Positions 6,676-13,342 of a stretch of 64,000 nucleotides of DNA are shown piece after piece. The stretch spans positions 384,001 to 448,000 of the forward strand of contig CBDCSU010000004.1 of NCBI GenBank assembly GCA_965221775.1, in the 5' to 3' direction. This DNA is from Candidatus Latescibacterota bacterium (GTDB taxonomy: Bacteria; Latescibacterota; UBA2968; UBA8231). Made by a program: the position numbers and the translations under genes. Position 1 is the stretch's first letter. The number at the start of each line of letters is the position of its first letter. The notes under the pieces were generated by a model. That model did not search any database and was not told the DNA's origin. It worked only from the letters and a program-made list of their open reading frames with translations.

Positions 6676-9615
6676 ATGGCAAAGACGGCTGACCACCCCG
6701 GCTCGGCGGGATCCTACGACTTCCAGCGCATCGAGAAGCGCTGGCGCGAGCACTGGATCGCCGAGGGCACGTACCGCACCGCCGGCCCGGGAGAGGAGGG
6801 CTACGACCCGGAGCAGCCGCGGTGCTACATCCTCGACATGTTCCCTTACCCCAGCGGTGAGGGCCTGCACATCGGCCACCCGAAGGGCTACATCGCCTCC
6901 GACATCTACAGCCGCTTCAAACGCATGGCGGGATACAACGTCCTGCATCCCATGGGGTTCGACAGTTTCGGCCTACCCGCCGAGCAGTATGCCATCGAGC
7001 ACAACGTCCATCCCGCCGTCTCCACCGATCAATGCGTCGACCGCATCCGCGCCCAGCTGCAGTACCTGGGCCTCGGCTACGACTGGGACCGGGAGATCTC
7101 CACCTCCCACGAGGACTACTACCGCTGGACCCAATGGATCTTCCTGCAGCTCTTCGACAGCTGGTACGACCCGGAGCTGGCGTGGCGCGACGACTCGGGG
7201 CGGTCCGTCCGCGGGCGGACCCGCCCGATCTCCGAGCTCGTGGATTCCTTCGAGAGGGGAGAGCGGCGGATCACGGACCAGGACCGGCGGTCCCTGCAGG
7301 GACGCCCCGGGGGCGCCGTGGAGGCCGGGTGGCAGGAGCTGTCCGAGGCGCAGCGCCAGGCGGTCCTGAACAACTACCGCATGGCCTACCAGAAGGAGGT
7401 CACCGTCAACTGGTGCCCCGGCCTCGGCACGGTCCTGGCCAACGAGGAGGTCACCGCCGAGGGTTGCAGCGAGATCGGCGACCACCCGGTGTACAGGCGG
7501 CCGCTGAAGCAGTGGATGCTGCGCATCACCGCCTTCGCCGAGCGGCTCCTGGAGGACCTCGATGCGGGGGCCCTGCCCGACGGCCGCGGCGGCACCTTTG
7601 CCCTCAACTGGCCGGAGTCGATCAAGCAGATGCAGCGCAACTGGATCGGCCGCAGCGAGGGCGCCGAGGTCCGCTTCGACGTGCTCGACGCCTCGGGCCG
7701 CGCCCGATCCAGCCTGGAGGTCTTCACCACCCGCCCCGATACCCTCTTCGGAGCCACCTTCATGGTCGTGGCGCCCCAGCATCCCCTGTTGTCGGAGGGC
7801 GACCAGATTCCGGAGGCCTGGCCGGAGGACACGCCTGGCGCCTGGAGGGGGGAGCCGGGAGCCTCCTCGCCCAGGGAAGCCGTGTCCCGCTACGCGGCCC
7901 AGGCGGCTCAATCCGCCTTCTCGGCGGCCGGGCAGGACCAGGAGAAGAGCGGGGTCTTCACGGGGATCTTCGCGCGCCGCCCCATGGACGGGCAGCGCAT
8001 CCCGGTCTTCACCGCCGACTATGTGAGCATGGACTACGGCACCGGAGCGATCATGGCCGTCCCCGCCCACGACGACCGGGACTACGCCTTCGCCCACAAG
8101 TACGGGATCCCGGTCATCGAGGTCGTCGAGCCGCCCCCGGAGGCGGCCGGCACCTCTCCCTATACGGGGGATGGAAGGTCGATCAACTCGCCCGGCGCAG
8201 GGGCCGGCGATCCCGCAAGCGGCAGCCCCTTTTCGATCTCGGGTCTGGCCACGGCCGAGGCGAAATCGCGCATGGTCGGCGCCCTGGAAGCGGCCGGCGT
8301 GGGCCGAAGGGCGGTCACCTGCCGCCTGCGTGACTGGGTGTTCTCGCGCCAGCGCTATTGGGGAGAGCCGTTCCCCCTGGCCACCCATCCCGACGGCTAC
8401 ACGGTGACCACCGGCCTGCCCGTGGTCCTCCCCGAACGAGAGGACTTCCGGCCCAGTACCTCGGATGATCCCGACACCCCGGTCACTCCGCCCCTCGGGC
8501 GGGCGGGCAGGGAGTGGACCCAGGTGGCGGTGGGGGGAACCCTCTGCGACCGCGAGCTCAACGTCATGCCCCAGTGGGCGGGATCGTGCTGGTACTTCCT
8601 GCGCTTCATCGATCCCCACAACGACGGAGCCTTCTGCGATCCGGAGAAGGAGAAGAGCTTCATGCCCGTCGATCTCTACATCGGCGGCGCCGAACACGCG
8701 GTGCTCCACCTGCTCTACGCCAGGTTCTGGCACAAGGCGCTCTTCGATCTGGGGCACGTGAGCTCCCCGGAGCCCTTCAAGAAGCAGTTCAGCCAGGGCA
8801 TGGTCACCGCCGACGCCTTCACCGACGACCGGGGGGTGTACATCGACATCCGCCAGGTCGCTTTCGACGGCGACGGCGAGCCCATCCACGCGCAGACCGG
8901 GCAGCGGCTGTCGAGACAACGGGGGAAGATGGGGAAGCGCTACAAGAACGGACTGCCCCCGGAAGAGGTAGGGGAGGAGTTCGGCGTCGATACCCTGCGG
9001 CTGTACGAGATGTACATGGGGCCCCTGGAGCAGAGCGCCCCGTGGAGCATGGAGGGGATCCGCGGCATGCAGCGGGTCCTGCAGCGGATCTGGAGAAACC
9101 TCGTCGCCCAGGACGGGAGCGCAAAGATCGACGACGGCAACGCCCCGGAGGAACTGCGCAGGCTGCTCCACCGGACCATTCGACGGATCACCGCCGACCT
9201 GGAGGGCCTGCGCTTCAACACCGCCATCGCCGGCCTCATCGAGCTCAACAACGAGTTGGTCTCACTCGAGAGAGTCCCGGTCAAGGTGGCGCGAACGCTC
9301 ATCCTCCTCCTGCATCCACTGGCCCCTCATCTTGCGGAAGAGCTGTGGGAGCGTTGCGGTTTCGGCTCCGGAGATCTCTCCGGCCAACCCTGGCCCGAAT
9401 TCGACGAAGCCCTGACCCGCCGGGAGACGATCCTCCTTCCGGTGCAGGTCAACGGCAAGGTCCGCGCCACGGTCGAGGTACCCGCTTCGACCTCCGAGGA
9501 GGAGGTGAGGGAGCATGTCCTCGGCCTGGACAACATCAAGCGGTACTTGCCCGACTCCGGCGAGATCAAGCGCATGATCCTCGTCCCGGGCAGGATCGTG
9601 AACATCGTAGTCTGA
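6676..9615 (+). CDS. leuS: leucine--tRNA ligase
   Basis: MFPYPSG.GLHIGH, FTTRPDT editing motif, GTGAIMAVPAHD, RLRDW.FSRQRYWG, YIGGAEHAVLHLLY, VQVNGKVR. Confidence 0.97.
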   Translation: MAKTADHPGSAGSYDFQRIEKRWREHWIAEGTYRTAGPGEEGYDPEQPRCYILDMFPYPSGEGLHIGHPKGYIASDIYSRFKRMAGYNVLHPMGFDSFGLPAEQYAIEHNVHPAVSTDQCVDRIRAQLQYLGLGYDWDREISTSHEDYYRWTQWIFLQLFDSWYDPELAWRDDSGRSVRGRTRPISELVDSFERGERRITDQDRRSLQGRPGGAVEAGWQELSEAQRQAVLNNYRMAYQKEVTVNWCPGLGTVLANEEVTAEGCSEIGDHPVYRRPLKQWMLRITAFAERLLEDLDAGALPDGRGGTFALNWPESIKQMQRNWIGRSEGAEVRFDVLDASGRARSSLEVFTTRPDTLFGATFMVVAPQHPLLSEGDQIPEAWPEDTPGAWRGEPGASSPREAVSRYAAQAAQSAFSAAGQDQEKSGVFTGIFARRPMDGQRIPVFTADYVSMDYGTGAIMAVPAHDDRDYAFAHKYGIPVIEVVEPPPEAAGTSPYTGDGRSINSPGAGAGDPASGSPFSISGLATAEAKSRMVGALEAAGVGRRAVTCRLRDWVFSRQRYWGEPFPLATHPDGYTVTTGLPVVLPEREDFRPSTSDDPDTPVTPPLGRAGREWTQVAVGGTLCDRELNVMPQWAGSCWYFLRFIDPHNDGAFCDPEKEKSFMPVDLYIGGAEHAVLHLLYARFWHKALFDLGHVSSPEPFKKQFSQGMVTADAFTDDRGVYIDIRQVAFDGDGEPIHAQTGQRLSRQRGKMGKRYKNGLPPEEVGEEFGVDTLRLYEMYMGPLEQSAPWSMEGIRGMQRVLQRIWRNLVAQDGSAKIDDGNAPEELRRLLHRTIRRITADLEGLRFNTAIAGLIELNNELVSLERVPVKVARTLILLLHPLAPHLAEELWERCGFGSGDLSGQPWPEFDEALTRRETILLPVQVNGKVRATVEVPASTSEEEVREHVLGLDNIKRYLPDSGEIKRMILVPGRIVNIVV

Positions 9616-9666: not shown

Positions 9667-9694
9667 GGGACACATAAGTAACTTTATGTCTATT
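9667..9694. other. dif-like recombination site 1 (11-6-11)
   Basis: GGGACACATAA GTAACT TTATGTCTATT: TAA-N6-TTA core with ACATAA/TTATGT inner symmetry, resembling E. coli dif GGTGCGCATAA TGTATA TTATGTTAAAT; AT-rich island in GC-rich DNA. Confidence 0.65.
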
Positions 9695-9742
9695 TCCGGT
9701 CTCACCTGGGCGCGGAAAGCCCCCCGGCGAACAGGGAAGCCA

Positions 9743-10696
9743 TCACCGGATGTGGATGTAGTCCGAGGCGTTGTCCGTCAGCCGTTCCCGGTTCTCGTAG
9801 TATCGCATGGTGGTCTTGAGATCCTTGTGGCGCAGGTGAGCCTGCACCTGCTGGGGCTTGGCCCCGCCCTCGATCGACAGAGTGCAGCAGGTGTGGCGGA
9901 ACATGTGAGCGGTCACGTTTCGAGTCACGCCGGCACGGCGGGCGTGCTTGCGCACGATGGCGTTGATCGACTGGTCCGAGATCGGTCTTCCGCGGGACCG
10001 GTTGCGGGCCAGGGAGATGAAGGCATGCCCGTCCACCCGAAAGCCCCCGAGCTCGAGGGCCTGACGGTAGAGTGCCAGGTAGTGCAGAACGATGGGCTGC
10101 AGCTTTACGTCCTGAGGAACGCCGGACTTCGTCTCCGTGAGCCGGAGGAGGTGGAAGGCGCCTTCCTCGCTGAAATCCGCCCACTTCACGTTGGCAACTT
10201 CGGAGCGCCGAAGGCCGGCAAAGGTGAGGAGGTGCAGAACCGCCAAGTCCCGTGCCCGGATCAGCGGGTTCTCCTCTTCGGCAACAACATCAACAATGCT
10301 CTGTAATTCATTTCGGGACAGCGCCTTGCCGCTCACCGTCTCGTCCAGGCGATAGCCGCGCACGAGAGAGGCGTCGGCCGGGTTCTTGTCGATCAGGTCC
10401 GTGGCGACCATCATGCGGAAGAAGGCCTTCAGGCTCGCCAGCTTGCGGTTGATCGTCGACCGCCTGCGGCCGCTGGCGGCCAGGGTGTTCCGGAAGTCGA
10501 TGACATCGTCGAAGGTCACTGCGGCCACTCTCTCGGGAGTGACATGGCCGCTGCCGAAAAACTCACGGAGGTCCGCGCCGTAGGCCTTTCGGGTGCGCTC
10601 CGTCAACTGGCCCGCAAGGAAGCGCTCCAGTGGGTCCTCGGAGGCGGATCGTACAGGGTGCGTCGAAAGAGGGGCTGGCGTGGCTTCGGTGCTCAT
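9743..10696 (-). CDS. tyrosine recombinase (Xer/resolvase-like; SAM-like core-binding domain plus catalytic domain)
   Basis: T..AY..DL..F and STINRKLASLK.FF; complete catalytic set R (GLRRSE), K (TKSG), HxxR (HMFRH), H (LRHK), Y (TTMRY); no arm-binding N-terminal domain. Confidence 0.93.
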   Translation of the reverse strand: MSTEATPAPLSTHPVRSASEDPLERFLAGQLTERTRKAYGADLREFFGSGHVTPERVAAVTFDDVIDFRNTLAASGRRRSTINRKLASLKAFFRMMVATDLIDKNPADASLVRGYRLDETVSGKALSRNELQSIVDVVAEEENPLIRARDLAVLHLLTFAGLRRSEVANVKWADFSEEGAFHLLRLTETKSGVPQDVKLQPIVLHYLALYRQALELGGFRVDGHAFISLARNRSRGRPISDQSINAIVRKHARRAGVTRNVTAHMFRHTCCTLSIEGGAKPQQVQAHLRHKDLKTTMRYYENRERLTDNASDYIHIR

Positions 10697-10702
10697 CGAT
10701 CC

Positions 10703-10731
10703 AATATACCCAGCGCGCCGGGATCTGTCAT
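10703..10731 (-). promoter_or_regulatory. sigma70-like promoter of the recombinase, probably leaderless
   Basis: Minus strand ATGACA (10731-10726) -17 bp- TATATT (10708-10703), only 6 nt before the ATG at 10696. Confidence 0.55.
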
Positions 10732-10786
10732 TGCCGCGATCTCGCGGCAGCAGGCACGCTTCCTGGGGCCCGATTCGGGCTGTATC

Positions 10787-10818
10787 TAACCAACGATAAT
10801 GACTGTTATCGTTGGTTA
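10787..10818. other. perfect palindromic recombinase-binding or recombination site 2 (13-6-13)
   Basis: TAACCAACGATAA TGACTG TTATCGTTGGTTA; arms are exact reverse complements; TAA-N6-TTA core as in Xer-type sites; 90 bp upstream of the recombinase start. Confidence 0.75.
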
Positions 10819-10921
10819 AGGGGCTTCGGCTTCACGGGGCGGCCGGGTCTTTGCCCCGGGGCCTCCTGGATCCCTTTGCTCGCACGCAGGCCAACCCCCT
10901 GGGCCTGGCTTCCAGAGCAGA

Positions 10922-10949
10922 ATGACACATAATCTATATTATCCGCCAT
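10922..10949. other. dif-like recombination site 3 (11-6-11), best candidate for the chromosomal dif
   Basis: ATGACACATAA TCTATA TTATCCGCCAT; reverse complement ATGGCGGATAA TATAGA TTATGTGTCAT resembles XerC-arm / spacer / XerD-arm organisation; shares GACACATAA with site 1. Confidence 0.65.
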
Positions 10950-10964
10950 GAATGCCGGTTGGAG

Positions 10965-12761
10965 TCATGTCCGGTGGAAGAGTCGATCGAGCTCTTGCAG
11001 AAGGATCTTGATCAGGATCGGCCGGCCGTGAGGACAGGCGAAGGGCTCGCGCGCGTTGAGCAGCTTCCGGACCAGCGTCTCCATCTCCGGGACGGAGAGC
11101 CTCTCGCCGGCGCGGATCGAAGTGTGGCACGCCATCGATGCGGCGACGGCGTCCCGTACCTCCAATCGGACATCCAGCTCCTCGATCAGGTCGGACAGAA
11201 TCTCGTGGAACAGGTCTCCGTCACCCCAGTGACGCAGCCCGGGCGGGATGGCATCGAGCAGCAGGCTCCCGGGACCGAACTCGCGCACGCCGAATCCCAG
11301 TCTCTCGAACAGCTCCCGAGCTTGCAGAAAGGCCTCCATCTCCACCGGGCTGACCGTGACGGTGAGGGGCACCAACAGCTGCTGGGAGGCCCCGCCTTCC
11401 GTTTCGAGGGCGTCCTGCACCTCCTCGAAGCGAACCCGCTCGTGCGCCACGTGCTGATCGACGACGAGGAGCCCGTCGCGGATGGGGATCAGCACGTACT
11501 TGTCGTGTATCTGCCAGGAGACCGTGGAGCGCCGCGCCTCCCCCAGGGTCTTCCTTCCCGCGGCGTCCGCCGGCACCGGCTCTCCGGGGACCGGGGCCGC
11601 GGGCAGCAGGGTCAGTCTCATCTGGTCCGCCGACCCGTCCCACGGCTCTGACTCGGGTTCGGGGAGATAGCCGGTCCGGCTCTCGGCCGGACCCTCGACC
11701 CGGGCCGTCTCCGCCGGCGCCGCCTCTCCGTCCTCACCGGACGGATAGGAGTAGGCCCGGGCCTCGGGGACCTTCAGGGCATCTCGCACCGCCTCCTGCA
11801 CCAGCTGCCGCAACTCCGGCTCCCGCGAAAAGCGCACCTCCCGCTTCGTGGGATGGACGTTGACGTCGAGATGGCGGGGATCGAGGTCCAGCCACAGGAC
11901 GAACTCGGGATGGGCGTTGTGCGGCAGCAGCGAGCCGTACCCGTTGTAGACGGCGGTGGTCAGGGGGCGACAGGCGATGGGACGCTGCCGGACCACGACG
12001 TACTGCCTGGAACGGGCCCGCCCGCACTCTCCCGGAGGCGTCAGGAAGCCCTCGACCCGCGCCTCCGCTCCACCGACCTCCGACTCCCGCTGAAGGGCGA
12101 GGAGCCGGCTGGCCTCGAGGCGGAGCAGTTCTGCCGCTCGCAGGTCTCGCTCCCCCGGAGGCAGGTCGAGGATCTGCCGGCCGCCGTGATCGAGGCGGAA
12201 GGAGACCTCCGGCCGGGCGGCGGCCAGGGCCACGACGGCCTGGGTCACATGCCGCAGCTCCGTGTCCCGGTGGCGCAGGAACTTCCGCCGTGCGGGGGTG
12301 TTGTAGAACAAGCCGCGGACCTCGATGGTGGTCCCCACGTCGCGCCCCGCGGGCAGCAGCTCGCGCTGCACACCGCCCTCGACGACGAGACGCGTGCCCT
12401 CGTCGCCCCCGGCGGGCCGGCTCTCCACCGTCAGCCGGGAGACGGCGGCGATGCTGGCCAGCGCCTCTCCTCGAAACCCCATGGTGGAGATGGTGAAGAG
12501 GTCGGTGGGCGTACGCATCTTGCTGGTGGCATGACGCTCGGTGCAGAGCTCCACGTCCTCCCGCGGCATGCCCAGACCGTTGTCGGCGACGCGGATCGCC
12601 TGCCGGCCCGCCTCTTCGATCTCGATCCCTATACGGCTGGCCCCGGCGTCGAGAGCGTTCTCCACCAGCTCCTTCACCACCGAGGCCGGCCGTTCGATCA
12701 CCTCCCCGGCGGCGATCTTGAGCACGAGGCTCTCGGGCAACCGCTGGATGCTCGCGCCCAT
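10965..12761 (-). CDS. mutL: DNA mismatch repair endonuclease MutL
   Basis: IAAGEVIERPASVVKELVENALDAGA, HATSK, GFRGEALASI, DVNVHPTKREVRF, DQH.AHER, MACH, CPHGRP. Confidence 0.97.
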   Translation of the reverse strand: MGASIQRLPESLVLKIAAGEVIERPASVVKELVENALDAGASRIGIEIEEAGRQAIRVADNGLGMPREDVELCTERHATSKMRTPTDLFTISTMGFRGEALASIAAVSRLTVESRPAGGDEGTRLVVEGGVQRELLPAGRDVGTTIEVRGLFYNTPARRKFLRHRDTELRHVTQAVVALAAARPEVSFRLDHGGRQILDLPPGERDLRAAELLRLEASRLLALQRESEVGGAEARVEGFLTPPGECGRARSRQYVVVRQRPIACRPLTTAVYNGYGSLLPHNAHPEFVLWLDLDPRHLDVNVHPTKREVRFSREPELRQLVQEAVRDALKVPEARAYSYPSGEDGEAAPAETARVEGPAESRTGYLPEPESEPWDGSADQMRLTLLPAAPVPGEPVPADAAGRKTLGEARRSTVSWQIHDKYVLIPIRDGLLVVDQHVAHERVRFEEVQDALETEGGASQQLLVPLTVTVSPVEMEAFLQARELFERLGFGVREFGPGSLLLDAIPPGLRHWGDGDLFHEILSDLIEELDVRLEVRDAVAASMACHTSIRAGERLSVPEMETLVRKLLNAREPFACPHGRPILIKILLQELDRLFHRT

Positions 12762-12763
12762 CG

Positions 12764-13342
12764 CTACAGCTCCGGGGCGATCTCGGAGACGCGGCGCTCG
12801 TACTCCTCCTGGGTCAGGCGCCCCTCCTCCAGGTCCTTGCGGGCCCGGGCCAGGCGCTCCCGGGGGCTGCCCACCCGGCGGTGCGTCCGGGCCTGCTGCA
12901 CCAGGTTGTACAGTCCGAAGAGGAGGAGGCCGCCGATGGCGGCCATCCAGGCGGACTCGCGCAACCAGCGTCCCCGGTCGGAGCCCACGGACACGGCCAC
13001 CCCCGAGGCCCGCCACCGGGCGAAGACCTCGATCAGCTCGGACTCATCGGGCATGGGCGCGATGACGTCCTTGGCCAGGGACTGGTGGCCCTCCGCCTCG
13101 ATGACCACGGGTTGGCGCAGGCGGCCGATGAGCCTGCCCTCCACCACCTCGACCCTCTCGACCATCTCCTGGGACACCAGCTCCTCCAGCCGCTCCGGAC
13201 GGATGGCGGTCTCGGAGGGTGCCAGAAGGCTCAGCAGCAGGAGCAGGCTGATCAGCCCCAGGGCCAGGATCAGGGCGAGGGCCGTGGGCGAGGGTTCCGG
13301 GGTCGTCCCCGGGTTCTCCCTGGTCTCGTCATGGGTTGTCAC
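12764..13342 (-). CDS. membrane protein with FtsH-extracellular-like domain between two TM helices and a C-terminal SHOCT-like tail
   Basis: GTG start overlaps upstream stop (GTGA); hydrophobic ALALILALGLISLLLLLSLL and AWMAAIGGLLLFGLYNLV; tail RERL..ARKDLEEGRLTQEEYERR. Confidence 0.7.
   Translation of the reverse strand: MTTHDETRENPGTTPEPSPTALALILALGLISLLLLLSLLAPSETAIRPERLEELVSQEMVERVEVVEGRLIGRLRQPVVIEAEGHQSLAKDVIAPMPDESELIEVFARWRASGVAVSVGSDRGRWLRESAWMAAIGGLLLFGLYNLVQQARTHRRVGSPRERLARARKDLEEGRLTQEEYERRVSEIAPEL

Follow-up and report, generated by a model that had tools for sequence, protein, structure and literature searches.

A terminus-located Xer-like recombinase and its candidate palindromic site, nested between dif-type sites in a family of sponge and marine bacteria

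The resolution of chromosome dimers is generally ascribed either to XerCD acting at dif or to one replacement recombinase. We analyzed a 64,000-nucleotide stretch of DNA from a Candidatus Latescibacterota bacterium (the window; contig CBDCSU010000004.1, positions 384,001 to 448,000), in which a gene between leuS and mutL, here called rec, encodes a Xer-like tyrosine recombinase. Two dif-like sites (sites 1 and 3) bracket the gene, and a perfectly palindromic site (site 2) lies between them. The best explanation that we can offer, and one we hold tentatively, is that rec and site 2 form a self-contained module of a single recombinase and a single site within a dif-bracketed terminus cassette, probably serving as a second dimer-resolution system. 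The anatomy of the locus is secure; its function is not.

The closest described systems are XerS/difSL, XerH/difH and archaeal XerA/dif, in which one Xer-like gene likewise adjoins a near-palindromic site at the terminus. In systems of the XerS/difSL type the recombinase gene stands beside its own site, "acting as a single module" in the words of one review (PMC5357621). These systems replace XerCD, whereas the family of the window keeps XerC, XerD and dif, with the module nested between dif sites. The spacer of site 2 is also shorter, at 6 bp versus the 11 bp given for difSL in the same review (PMC5357621).

The cassette layout has other counterparts. Chromosomal dif modules of Acinetobacter, with extra dif-like sites beside the main dif, are described in a further report (PMC12907356). 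The Acinetobacter dif and pdif modules resemble the present locus as short cassettes bounded by XerC/XerD sites, which in most relatives of the window are inverted. Within the Acinetobacter modules, too, the sites are inverted relative to each other. Unlike those modules, the cargo in the window's family is a recombinase with its own target, is vertically inherited at the terminus and is seen to flip. Integrative mobile elements exploiting Xer (IMEX), such as the gonococcal genetic island, CTX and TLC, encode no recombinase themselves, are acquired horizontally and vary in their presence. In both IMEX and the window, DNA at the terminus is flanked by a dif on one side and a degenerate dif on the other, and the sites in the window look like direct repeats with unlike spacers; the window's cassette differs from IMEX in being essentially only a recombinase, inherited vertically and present in 59 of the family's 75 other genomes.

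Rec itself is not Cre-like. In G006 and genus g22, relatives that lack rec, the replacement enzyme is Cre-like by sequence and has a 13/14-6 palindrome upstream, as in Cre/loxP; Cre belongs to a plasmid prophage, whereas the Cre-like gene here is chromosomal, in the leuS/mutL slot at the terminus and next to dif. Leslie and Sherratt are said to have found in 1995 that Cre/loxP at the E. coli terminus can substitute for XerCD/dif. Full-text literature searches returned no description of a third recombinase nested between dif sites or of paired inverted dif sites at a terminus.

Anatomy of the locus at the replication terminus

The genome of the window (G000) comprises 5.36 Mb in six contigs, among them C4, C5 and C6, with 70% G+C; the locus lies on C4. 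Leading-strand-skewed octamers of the GGGGGAGG type, resembling FtsK-orienting polar sequences (KOPS), were trained on C5 and C6 and then applied to C4. Their cumulative maximum on C4 was at 391,846, placing the switch in polarity within 2 kb of site 1 (C4:393,667), with forward to reverse counts of 333:97 before 400 kb and 213:657 beyond, and the cumulative GC skew of C4 declines steadily from about 400 kb on. The homologous locus lies 0.467-0.496 chromosome lengths from dnaA in all nine complete relatives (one genome size being rounded). In G000, dnaA was located on C6, and by contig arithmetic a terminus at the window locus would give two replication arms of about 2.7 Mb. We identify the locus as the replication terminus; its features are as follows (positions in the window):

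6676..9615, plus strand: leuS, 979 amino acids (aa), a housekeeping flank that converges on rec; Pfam tRNA-synt_1_2, tRNA-synt_1 and Anticodon_1
9667..9694, no strand: site 1, dif-like, 11-6-11, GGGACACATAA-GTAACT-TTATGTCTATT; both arms resemble the XerD arm
9743..10696, minus strand: rec, Xer-like tyrosine recombinase of 317 aa by Pfam, distinct from XerC and XerD, with complete catalytic residues
10703..10731, minus strand: promoter-like site, ATGACA-17-TATATT, 10 of 12 positions matching; 1 found versus 0.2 expected
10787..10818, no strand: site 2, perfect 13-6-13 palindrome, TAACCAACGATAA-TGACTG-TTATCGTTGGTTA; putative cognate core site of Rec
10922..10949, minus strand: site 3, XerCD-type dif, plus-strand sequence ATGACACATAA-TCTATA-TTATCCGCCAT; the minus strand reads ATGGCGGATAA TATAGA TTATGTGTCAT, that is, XerC-like arm, spacer and XerD-like arm
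10965..13016, minus strand: mutL, 683 aa, a flanking gene that precedes rec and shares its strand; Pfam MutL_C, DNA_mis_repair and HATPase_c_3

An earlier note on this DNA, made from the letters alone, had described three sites around a solo tyrosine recombinase, all of which are present, and the list of open reading frames (ORFs) together with Pfam bears out its statement that rec is the sole plausible gene between leuS and mutL. The pattern TAA-N6-TTA occurs at 12 places in the whole 5.36-Mb genome, three of them inside the 1.3-kb locus, and ATAA-N6-TTAT at six, again with three at the locus. The 9-mer reported to be shared by sites 1 and 3, GACACATAA, does begin at 9669 and at 10924, on the same strand and 1255 bp apart, and these are two of its four occurrences in the genome. 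Because such motifs are so rare genome-wide, the cluster of three sites is far beyond chance, which also sets aside the concern that TAA-N6-TTA might be common in this genome.

The Pfam domains of Rec, Phage_int_SAM_1 (residues 28-97) and Phage_integrase (residues 126-303), span residues 28-303 and leave no room for an arm-binding domain, in agreement with the first description. Against NCBIfam models, Rec scored 116 bits for XerC (TIGR02224, cut-off 335), 114 for XerD (TIGR02225, cut-off 330), 103 for XerA_Arch (cut-off 220) and 63 for XerS (cut-off 267), far below the cut-off in each case, which distinguishes it from the enzymes of the known systems. No XerH model was among its family-model matches, and the match to the integron integrase (TIGR02249, 55 bits, cut-off 265) covers residues 239-301 only, so that Rec is not assigned to that family. 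Its best named solved relative by sequence is a Pyrococcus XerA-like protein (4a8e, E 7.5e-12), and XerD gave 2e-7. The top match in the PDB was chain 9i5v_14 (E 3.9e-15, 401 aa), deposited as a ribosome-associated translation inhibitor, a name that fits ill with a tyrosine recombinase alignment across residues 32-300.

G000 encodes further Xer proteins. In a tree with the canonical Xer proteins of relatives, the protein at C5:204148 falls in the XerD clade and that at C6:352405 in the XerC clade, and Rec lies outside both; the check for separate xerC and xerD genes was thus positive. XerC and XerD orthologues are retained across the family as well as in G000. Low XerD-model scores in the window's genus had prompted the idea that rec replaces a lost XerC or XerD, which is ruled out by the proteins of 290 and 148 bits that fall in the XerD and XerC clades. 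The XerC proteins of the window's clade (G000:C6:352405 and those of G006, G007, G014 and G016) sit on a long branch and score 144-177 bits against the XerD model, versus 228-301 for other genera and the sister family. The dif-like sites of this clade are also the most divergent, and enzyme and site may therefore have co-evolved.

For comparison, 53 related loci from public metagenome-assembled genomes (MAGs) were oriented, together with the window's own, with rec on the plus strand; the records carry the labels Candidatus Latescibacterota, Gemmatimonadaceae or Gemmatimonadota and represent sponge and marine bacteria. The 59 other genomes of the family with rec have one gene each and cover 15 of 18 genera, and 16 genomes belonging to three further families of the class had no copy. 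Upstream of rec and on the same strand lies mutL in 45 of 53 loci, and leuS stands beside the locus in 44 of 53 (36 after rec and 8 before mutL). Identity to the rec, leuS and mutL of the window falls together, from 88/92/91% through 73/68/60% to about 61/63/42%. The Spearman correlation between rec and leuS identity is 0.53 (n = 34), a weak test of vertical descent because most loci bunch near 61-64%.

The ratio of nonsynonymous to synonymous substitution (dN/dS) for rec between close pairs is 0.04-0.18. In an alignment of 121 Rec sequences, 104 of 317 positions are at least 97% identical, and R163, K190, H264, R267, H290 and Y299/Y300 are at least 97% conserved. The low dN/dS and the intact catalytic residues indicate that selection acts on Rec activity. 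Being single-copy, syntenic with leuS and mutL and under strong purifying selection, rec is a resident gene rather than a recent insertion, and by these sequence measures it appears to encode an old, vertically inherited and active enzyme. Terminus location, site anatomy, separate XerC and XerD, vertical inheritance and purifying selection are all directly supported. In one assembly (G004:C270; L032, L033 and L084) rec lies in two overlapping frames, through a frameshift or an assembly error.

Site 2 and a possible second dimer-resolution system

In the window, site 2 lies 91 bp upstream of the rec start codon. Of the 53 related loci, 48 have such a site ahead of rec (consensus TATACTAACGATAA-CAGGCA-TTATCGTTAGTATA), at distances of 64-640 bp from the rec match. 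Its arms are conserved, and the spacer is kept in sequence, in either orientation relative to rec (27 versus 16). This orientation (L038-L090) is mixed even inside one genus; the two forms differ at all six letters, and therefore the spacer or the entire palindrome has flipped repeatedly, for which template switching at the hairpin is a possible neutral cause.

The pattern ACYANCGATAA-N6-TTAT was found in 50 of 60 rec-positive and none of 16 rec-negative genomes of the family, with a reversed control pattern giving 4 hits in the 76 genomes. The association is partly trivial, as site 2 adjoins rec, yet the extra sites, too, were confined to genomes with rec. The arms of site 2 (ACCAACGATAA) are unlike both dif arms, which argues against binding of Rec to a dif arm. 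We read site 2 as the site of Rec because sites of this type are confined to rec-positive genomes and form inverted pairs around invertible segments (described below); judged by these patterns, site 2 behaves as a recombination site that Rec would bind and recombine.

We propose that the segment would act as a dimer-resolution hub at the terminus in this family of uncultured sponge and marine bacteria. Sites 3 and 1 would be the substrates of XerC and XerD, which are encoded elsewhere, and rec with site 2 would be a cassette between these dif sites, inherited vertically through the family. Site 2 would serve as the core site, with two Rec monomers per site and a 6-bp crossover region. Rec would synapse the sister copies of site 2 at the terminus and add a crossover, converting a chromosome dimer to monomers, and would thereby work beside XerCD/dif as a multimer-resolution module with its gene next to its own site. 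The flanking dif sites would make the cassette a "dif module", whose block XerCD would flip where the pair is inverted, as in most relatives; where cassettes differ (G006 and genus g22), the slot would be filled by a Cre-like recombinase with a lox-like palindrome. The cassette of the window should resist excision because its dif-like sites seem to be direct repeats with unlike spacers. Dimer resolution as the biological role of Rec is suggested by analogy with the systems introduced above.

Several points weigh against this role. A second dimer-resolution system would be redundant, as XerC, XerD and a well-conserved dif persist family-wide, and the strong conservation of rec despite XerCD/dif indicates that Rec has a non-redundant role. 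Several genomes hold many rec-type sites in inverted or direct arrays away from the terminus, and in such lineages the main work of Rec may lie elsewhere. Five of the 53 loci yielded no site 2, the orientation of site 1 is ambiguous in G000, and a second site-2-like palindrome of G000 at C6:2410192, with a differing spacer, has no place in this account. Contigs of four public runs contained no excision or inversion joint at the window locus, although rare forms are invisible in contigs.

The earlier note had weighed an IMEX-like cassette inserted at dif by the host XerCD against a resident terminus locus with a third recombinase beside or in place of XerCD. A recent insertion is rejected, as rec has descended together with leuS and mutL in 15 of 18 genera, no empty allele was seen and an IMEX by definition lacks a recombinase gene; the underlying idea of a cassette survives in the form of an exchangeable slot, with Cre-like swaps and a flipping block. 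The resident locus agrees in structure with the KOPS-like polarity switch, the position opposite dnaA in nine of nine genomes, the presence of XerC and XerD elsewhere and a single-copy, syntenic rec, and a part in dimer resolution would be an addition by analogy.

The family has retained both XerCD/dif and an extra module for its whole history, nested in paired dif sites that flip. If Rec resolves dimers, the family would be a living intermediate between two-recombinase and one-recombinase systems and a natural counterpart of the classic substitution of Cre/loxP for dif. If it does not, a strongly conserved, terminus-tied recombinase with another job would have to be explained. In either case a new pair of recombinase and target, with a 13-6-13 site and natural spacer variants, is a possible tool for genome engineering.

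The dif-type sites, block inversion and replacement of the cassette

A dif-like site was found at most 200 bp after the rec stop codon in 38 of 49 loci with at least 150 bp of sequence there, and its XerD-like arm points to rec in 36 of these 49; in the best-sampled genus it reads ATGTCTTATAA-N6-TTATGTAAATA. The sister family, which lacks rec, has a single ACGGTATAA-GATACA-TTATGTAAACT elsewhere on the chromosome in three of five complete genomes (strict pattern), with leuS, mutL and rec not found within 1.5 kb. Sites 1 and 3 are identified as XerC/XerD-type dif sites because their arms match the dif of the family and of the sister family. A second dif-like site lies upstream of rec in 31 of 54 loci, weak matches included, between mutL and site 2 in the window's clade and before mutL in the large genus g14.

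In most relatives the paired dif sites are inverted, with their XerD-like arms turned inward. The two loci closest to the window (L038 and L039, with rec identities of 88% and 87%) carry homologues of site 3, and the polarity of their post-rec dif is opposite: the XerD-like arm of the site 1 equivalent faces away from rec, giving direct repeats with unlike spacers. In G000 site 1 could lie either way round with respect to site 3, because both its arms are XerD-like, and comparison with the XerD-arm consensus of the family (8/11 versus 6/11) slightly favors the arm that a direct repeat would not call for. The shared GACACATAA and the closest relatives make it likely, though not certain, that sites 1 and 3 are direct repeats in the window, so that its bounding sites would depart from the dif-module pattern of the relatives. 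The proposal that TTATGTGTC is a XerD-like arm accordingly fits site 3 and is equivocal at site 1.

In contigs from other sponge and marine metagenomes, site 1 is variant at four positions (9667, 9678, 9679 and 9690), and no differences were listed within sites 2 and 3 where these were covered. Site 3 shares its spacer and mutL-side arm with the congener G006 (TCTATA TTATGCGCC), and the cassette-side arm differs. Site 1 is fast-changing and site 3 the better conserved of the two; this comparison suggests site 3 as the best candidate for the working dif and site 1 as its probably degenerate partner.

Other dif-like sites show variation of their own. In many genomes of genus g14 (for example L046-L049, L054, L060, L061 and L065) the post-rec dif has ATATGTAAA in place of TTATGTAAA, at the inner end of the XerD-like arm, and the pre-mutL copy is canonical; in other genomes a variant of the ATATGTAAA type is in the pre-mutL copy instead, and one dif copy may be weakened. 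A fourth dif-like site of G000, GGTAACATAA AGATAG TTATTTCTTAG, lies near the start of contig C5 (C5:4285, locus L036). Several short-read MAG contigs end within about 130 bp of the dif sites of the locus: L041, L045, L079 and L081 after rec, G012 and G021 after or within mutL, and G024 about 120 bp after leuS. These breaks hint at a repeat, or at a mixture of orientations in the populations sampled.

Within genus g14 the block [dif-mutL-site 2-rec-dif] can lie either way round with respect to leuS. In ten loci with leuS after rec, the first 450 bp match, reversed, the post-rec DNA in all eight loci with leuS before mutL, a swap of flanks across the block. On the block tree (36 scored loci) the orientation changed at least six times, including in sister pairs about 3% diverged. 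FtsK-activated XerCD is expected to invert DNA between two inverted dif sites, and XerCD may well be what flips the block. Logan contigs of 4 of the 20 listed public runs (X15, X1, X2 and X9) were searched for an excision circle or inversion and contained no joint of site 1 and site 3, an absence that says nothing either way, as contigs cannot reveal rare forms. The joints seen in these contigs were skips of 214 bp and 186 bp within leuS and a 103-bp replacement just before mutL (X9).

Four genomes without rec (G006 and three of genus g22) hold a Cre-like recombinase with a lox-like palindrome in the leuS/mutL slot beside dif. In G006, a congener with a complete chromosome, a recombinase of 319 aa lies between leuS and mutL in the opposite orientation, and Cre or Tre accounts for every one of its 17 best PDB sequence matches (lowest E 2e-19). 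The palindrome GGTTACTTGGTATAA-TATCCC-TTATAGAAAGTAACG is 23 bp upstream of the gene, and three dif-like sites surround it. In the three g22 genomes the Cre-like gene is 63-66% identical, with a lox-like palindrome and the same slot; dif follows the gene, its XerD-like arm facing it, at two of the three loci (L100 and L102). The palindrome arm of G126, AAACTTCGTATAA, resembles the loxP arm, and the slot lies 0.47 (G126) and 0.49 (G006) chromosome lengths from dnaA. Two unrelated recombinases, each with its own palindrome, share place and geometry beside dif, which makes the slot a generic one.

The Cre-like family is patchy and multi-copy: it turned up in 20 of the 168 genomes from the phylum, and a single genome can have as many as 12 matches. 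G000 has a Cre-like copy at C6:2370013-2370957 (L099), 72% identical to the slot enzyme of G006, with no lox-like palindrome seen upstream, and another at C1:22913-23815, 45% identical, on the 37-kb contig C1.

A search for empty alleles, with a single dif between leuS and mutL, found none among the rec-less loci examined: the contiguous ones (G006 and the three g22 genomes) all carry the Cre-like cassette. The contigs of G012, G021, G024, G020 and G132 stop at the locus or next to it, the DNA after leuS in G130 is AT-rich, contains Ns and shows no clear site, and G137 gave no leuS match. Relatives thus have the inverted bounding sites, flipping block and cassette exchange of a dif module, and the block inversions and slot replacement, like the association of site and recombinase, are directly supported. 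Together they provide evidence of exchangeable cassettes between chromosomal dif sites in bacteria other than Acinetobacter.

These findings allow another reading, which we consider rather unlikely: an invertible, dif-bracketed slot at the terminus would exchange Xer-like or Cre-like modules via XerCD, and its resident would be a housekeeping second resolvase, working beside XerCD/dif, that other DNA exploits since the enzyme is never switched off. The exploiting DNA would be the invertible segments near leucine-rich-repeat genes and the repeat arrays with half-sites (described below), much as IMEX exploit XerCD. If true, the locus would offer a natural two-system terminus together with natural recombinase-mediated cassette exchange.

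Less credible to us is a dif module, domesticated or selfish, that occupies the dif slot, is moved or swapped by the host XerCD at the flanking dif sites in the manner of recombinase-mediated cassette exchange, and persists since it cannot be excised, rendering no service to the host. Dif-like sites do bracket the cassette in the window and in relatives, and a dif whose XerD-like arm is turned toward the 3' end of the gene is found at 36 of the 49 rec loci as well as in G006 and at L100 and L102. The unrelated Cre-like cassettes in the slot, from a family of such patchy occurrence, would also suit a selfish element, as would the change in the cassette-side arm of site 3 between G000 and G006 with spacer and mutL-side arm kept. 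Such an element would sit poorly with a single-copy gene in fixed synteny across 15 of 18 genera, with rec identity that tracks leuS and mutL, and with dN/dS values and catalytic residues that point to selection on enzyme activity. Moreover, the genomes showed neither an empty slot nor a further copy of rec, extrachromosomal or otherwise.

Rec-type sites elsewhere in the family

G152, a genome of another genus, has three paralogous loci, each with two rec-type sites in inverted orientation 158 bp apart. The spacers of the pairs are reverse-complementary (TAAAAG/CTTTTA and CAACAA/TTGTTG), and no recombinase was found within about 2 kb. The pairs enclose invertible segments of about 130 bp (C1:1960158-1960343, 2709038-2709223 and 1109451-1109636; L138-L140) and their neighbors encode leucine-rich-repeat proteins (633 and 646 aa) and a dynamin-like GTPase. 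At homologous loci of G160, G157, G149, G138 and G150, and at a second G152 locus, the inner segment is reversed with respect to the flank in common, with breakpoints at the rec-type sites. As spacer-matched inverted pairs flank a segment seen both ways round, the sites look like an inversion system. The segment contains a TTGACA hexamer, and an invertible promoter was considered and set aside when the promoter scan was negative; we hence speak of an invertible segment. From their sequence the G152 loci are candidate phase-variable loci, and the leucine-rich-repeat proteins would be candidate phase-variable proteins in sponge symbionts.

Other genomes (G017, G124, G023 and G165) hold 9-17 strand-hits of the site pattern, some as direct repeats that share a spacer at distances of 1.9-32 kb and some in a four-copy array; two of the array copies in G017 share the spacer CGGGTA with site 2 of that genome. 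Taken with the G152 pairs and their flipped relatives, this could mean that Rec is a trans-acting switch recombinase that inverts or rearranges DNA at scattered sites of the site 2 type, with phase variation or shuffled cassettes as the outcome, site 2 being a home or regulatory copy and the terminus incidental. We regard this as improbable. By the pattern search many genomes, that of the window among them, have no such site beyond site 2, and G000 has one extra, solitary look-alike with another spacer and no pairs. The position of rec beside dif at the terminus is conserved across genera, and the Cre-like substitute in the slot, with its other DNA specificity, could not serve rec-type switches. 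The inversion data strictly need one change of orientation, and the scan found no promoter in the segment.

The extra site of G000, AACCCCCGATAA GGGACA TTATCGCTGGTT, is a second site-2-like palindrome at C6:2410192-2410219 (L035:3190-3225), between two imperfect direct repeats of about 55 bp. Eight neighboring ORFs gave no Pfam match, and the palindrome has no partner site and was not found in the congener G007.

The promoter-like site of rec ends 6 bases ahead of the ATG, which makes a leaderless transcript likely. Site 2 lies 56-87 bp upstream of the -35 hexamer without overlapping the core promoter of rec, a placement that argues against a classical operator, and as a terminator or operator it was rejected, there being no terminator-like feature there. 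That site 2 is an operator or hairpin regulating rec or mutL, with sites 1 and 3 as AT-rich intergenic dif look-alikes, is therefore very improbable: all three sites are intergenic, site 2 is close behind the mutL stop in many relatives and such a palindrome could bind any dimeric regulator, but the locus lies at a KOPS-like polarity switch opposite dnaA, the flanking sites match the dif of family and sister family in both arms and bound an exactly inverted block, and site 2, at a distance from rec that varies as widely as given above, is of a type confined to rec-positive genomes and found in spacer-matched inverted pairs.

In G017 and G023 a rec-type half-site terminates repeated elements, which are direct repeats with identical spacers (G017:C1:5655216-5664837, L175; G023:C2:2705459/2707358, 2775540/2777405 and 2204662/2211489, L173, L174 and L176). 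The elements are 0.36-0.54 kb long and 96-99% identical, in a layout like that of a cassette array, and the genes between them are unrelated, being heparinase-like, cupin, PhyH-like and others of no assigned function.

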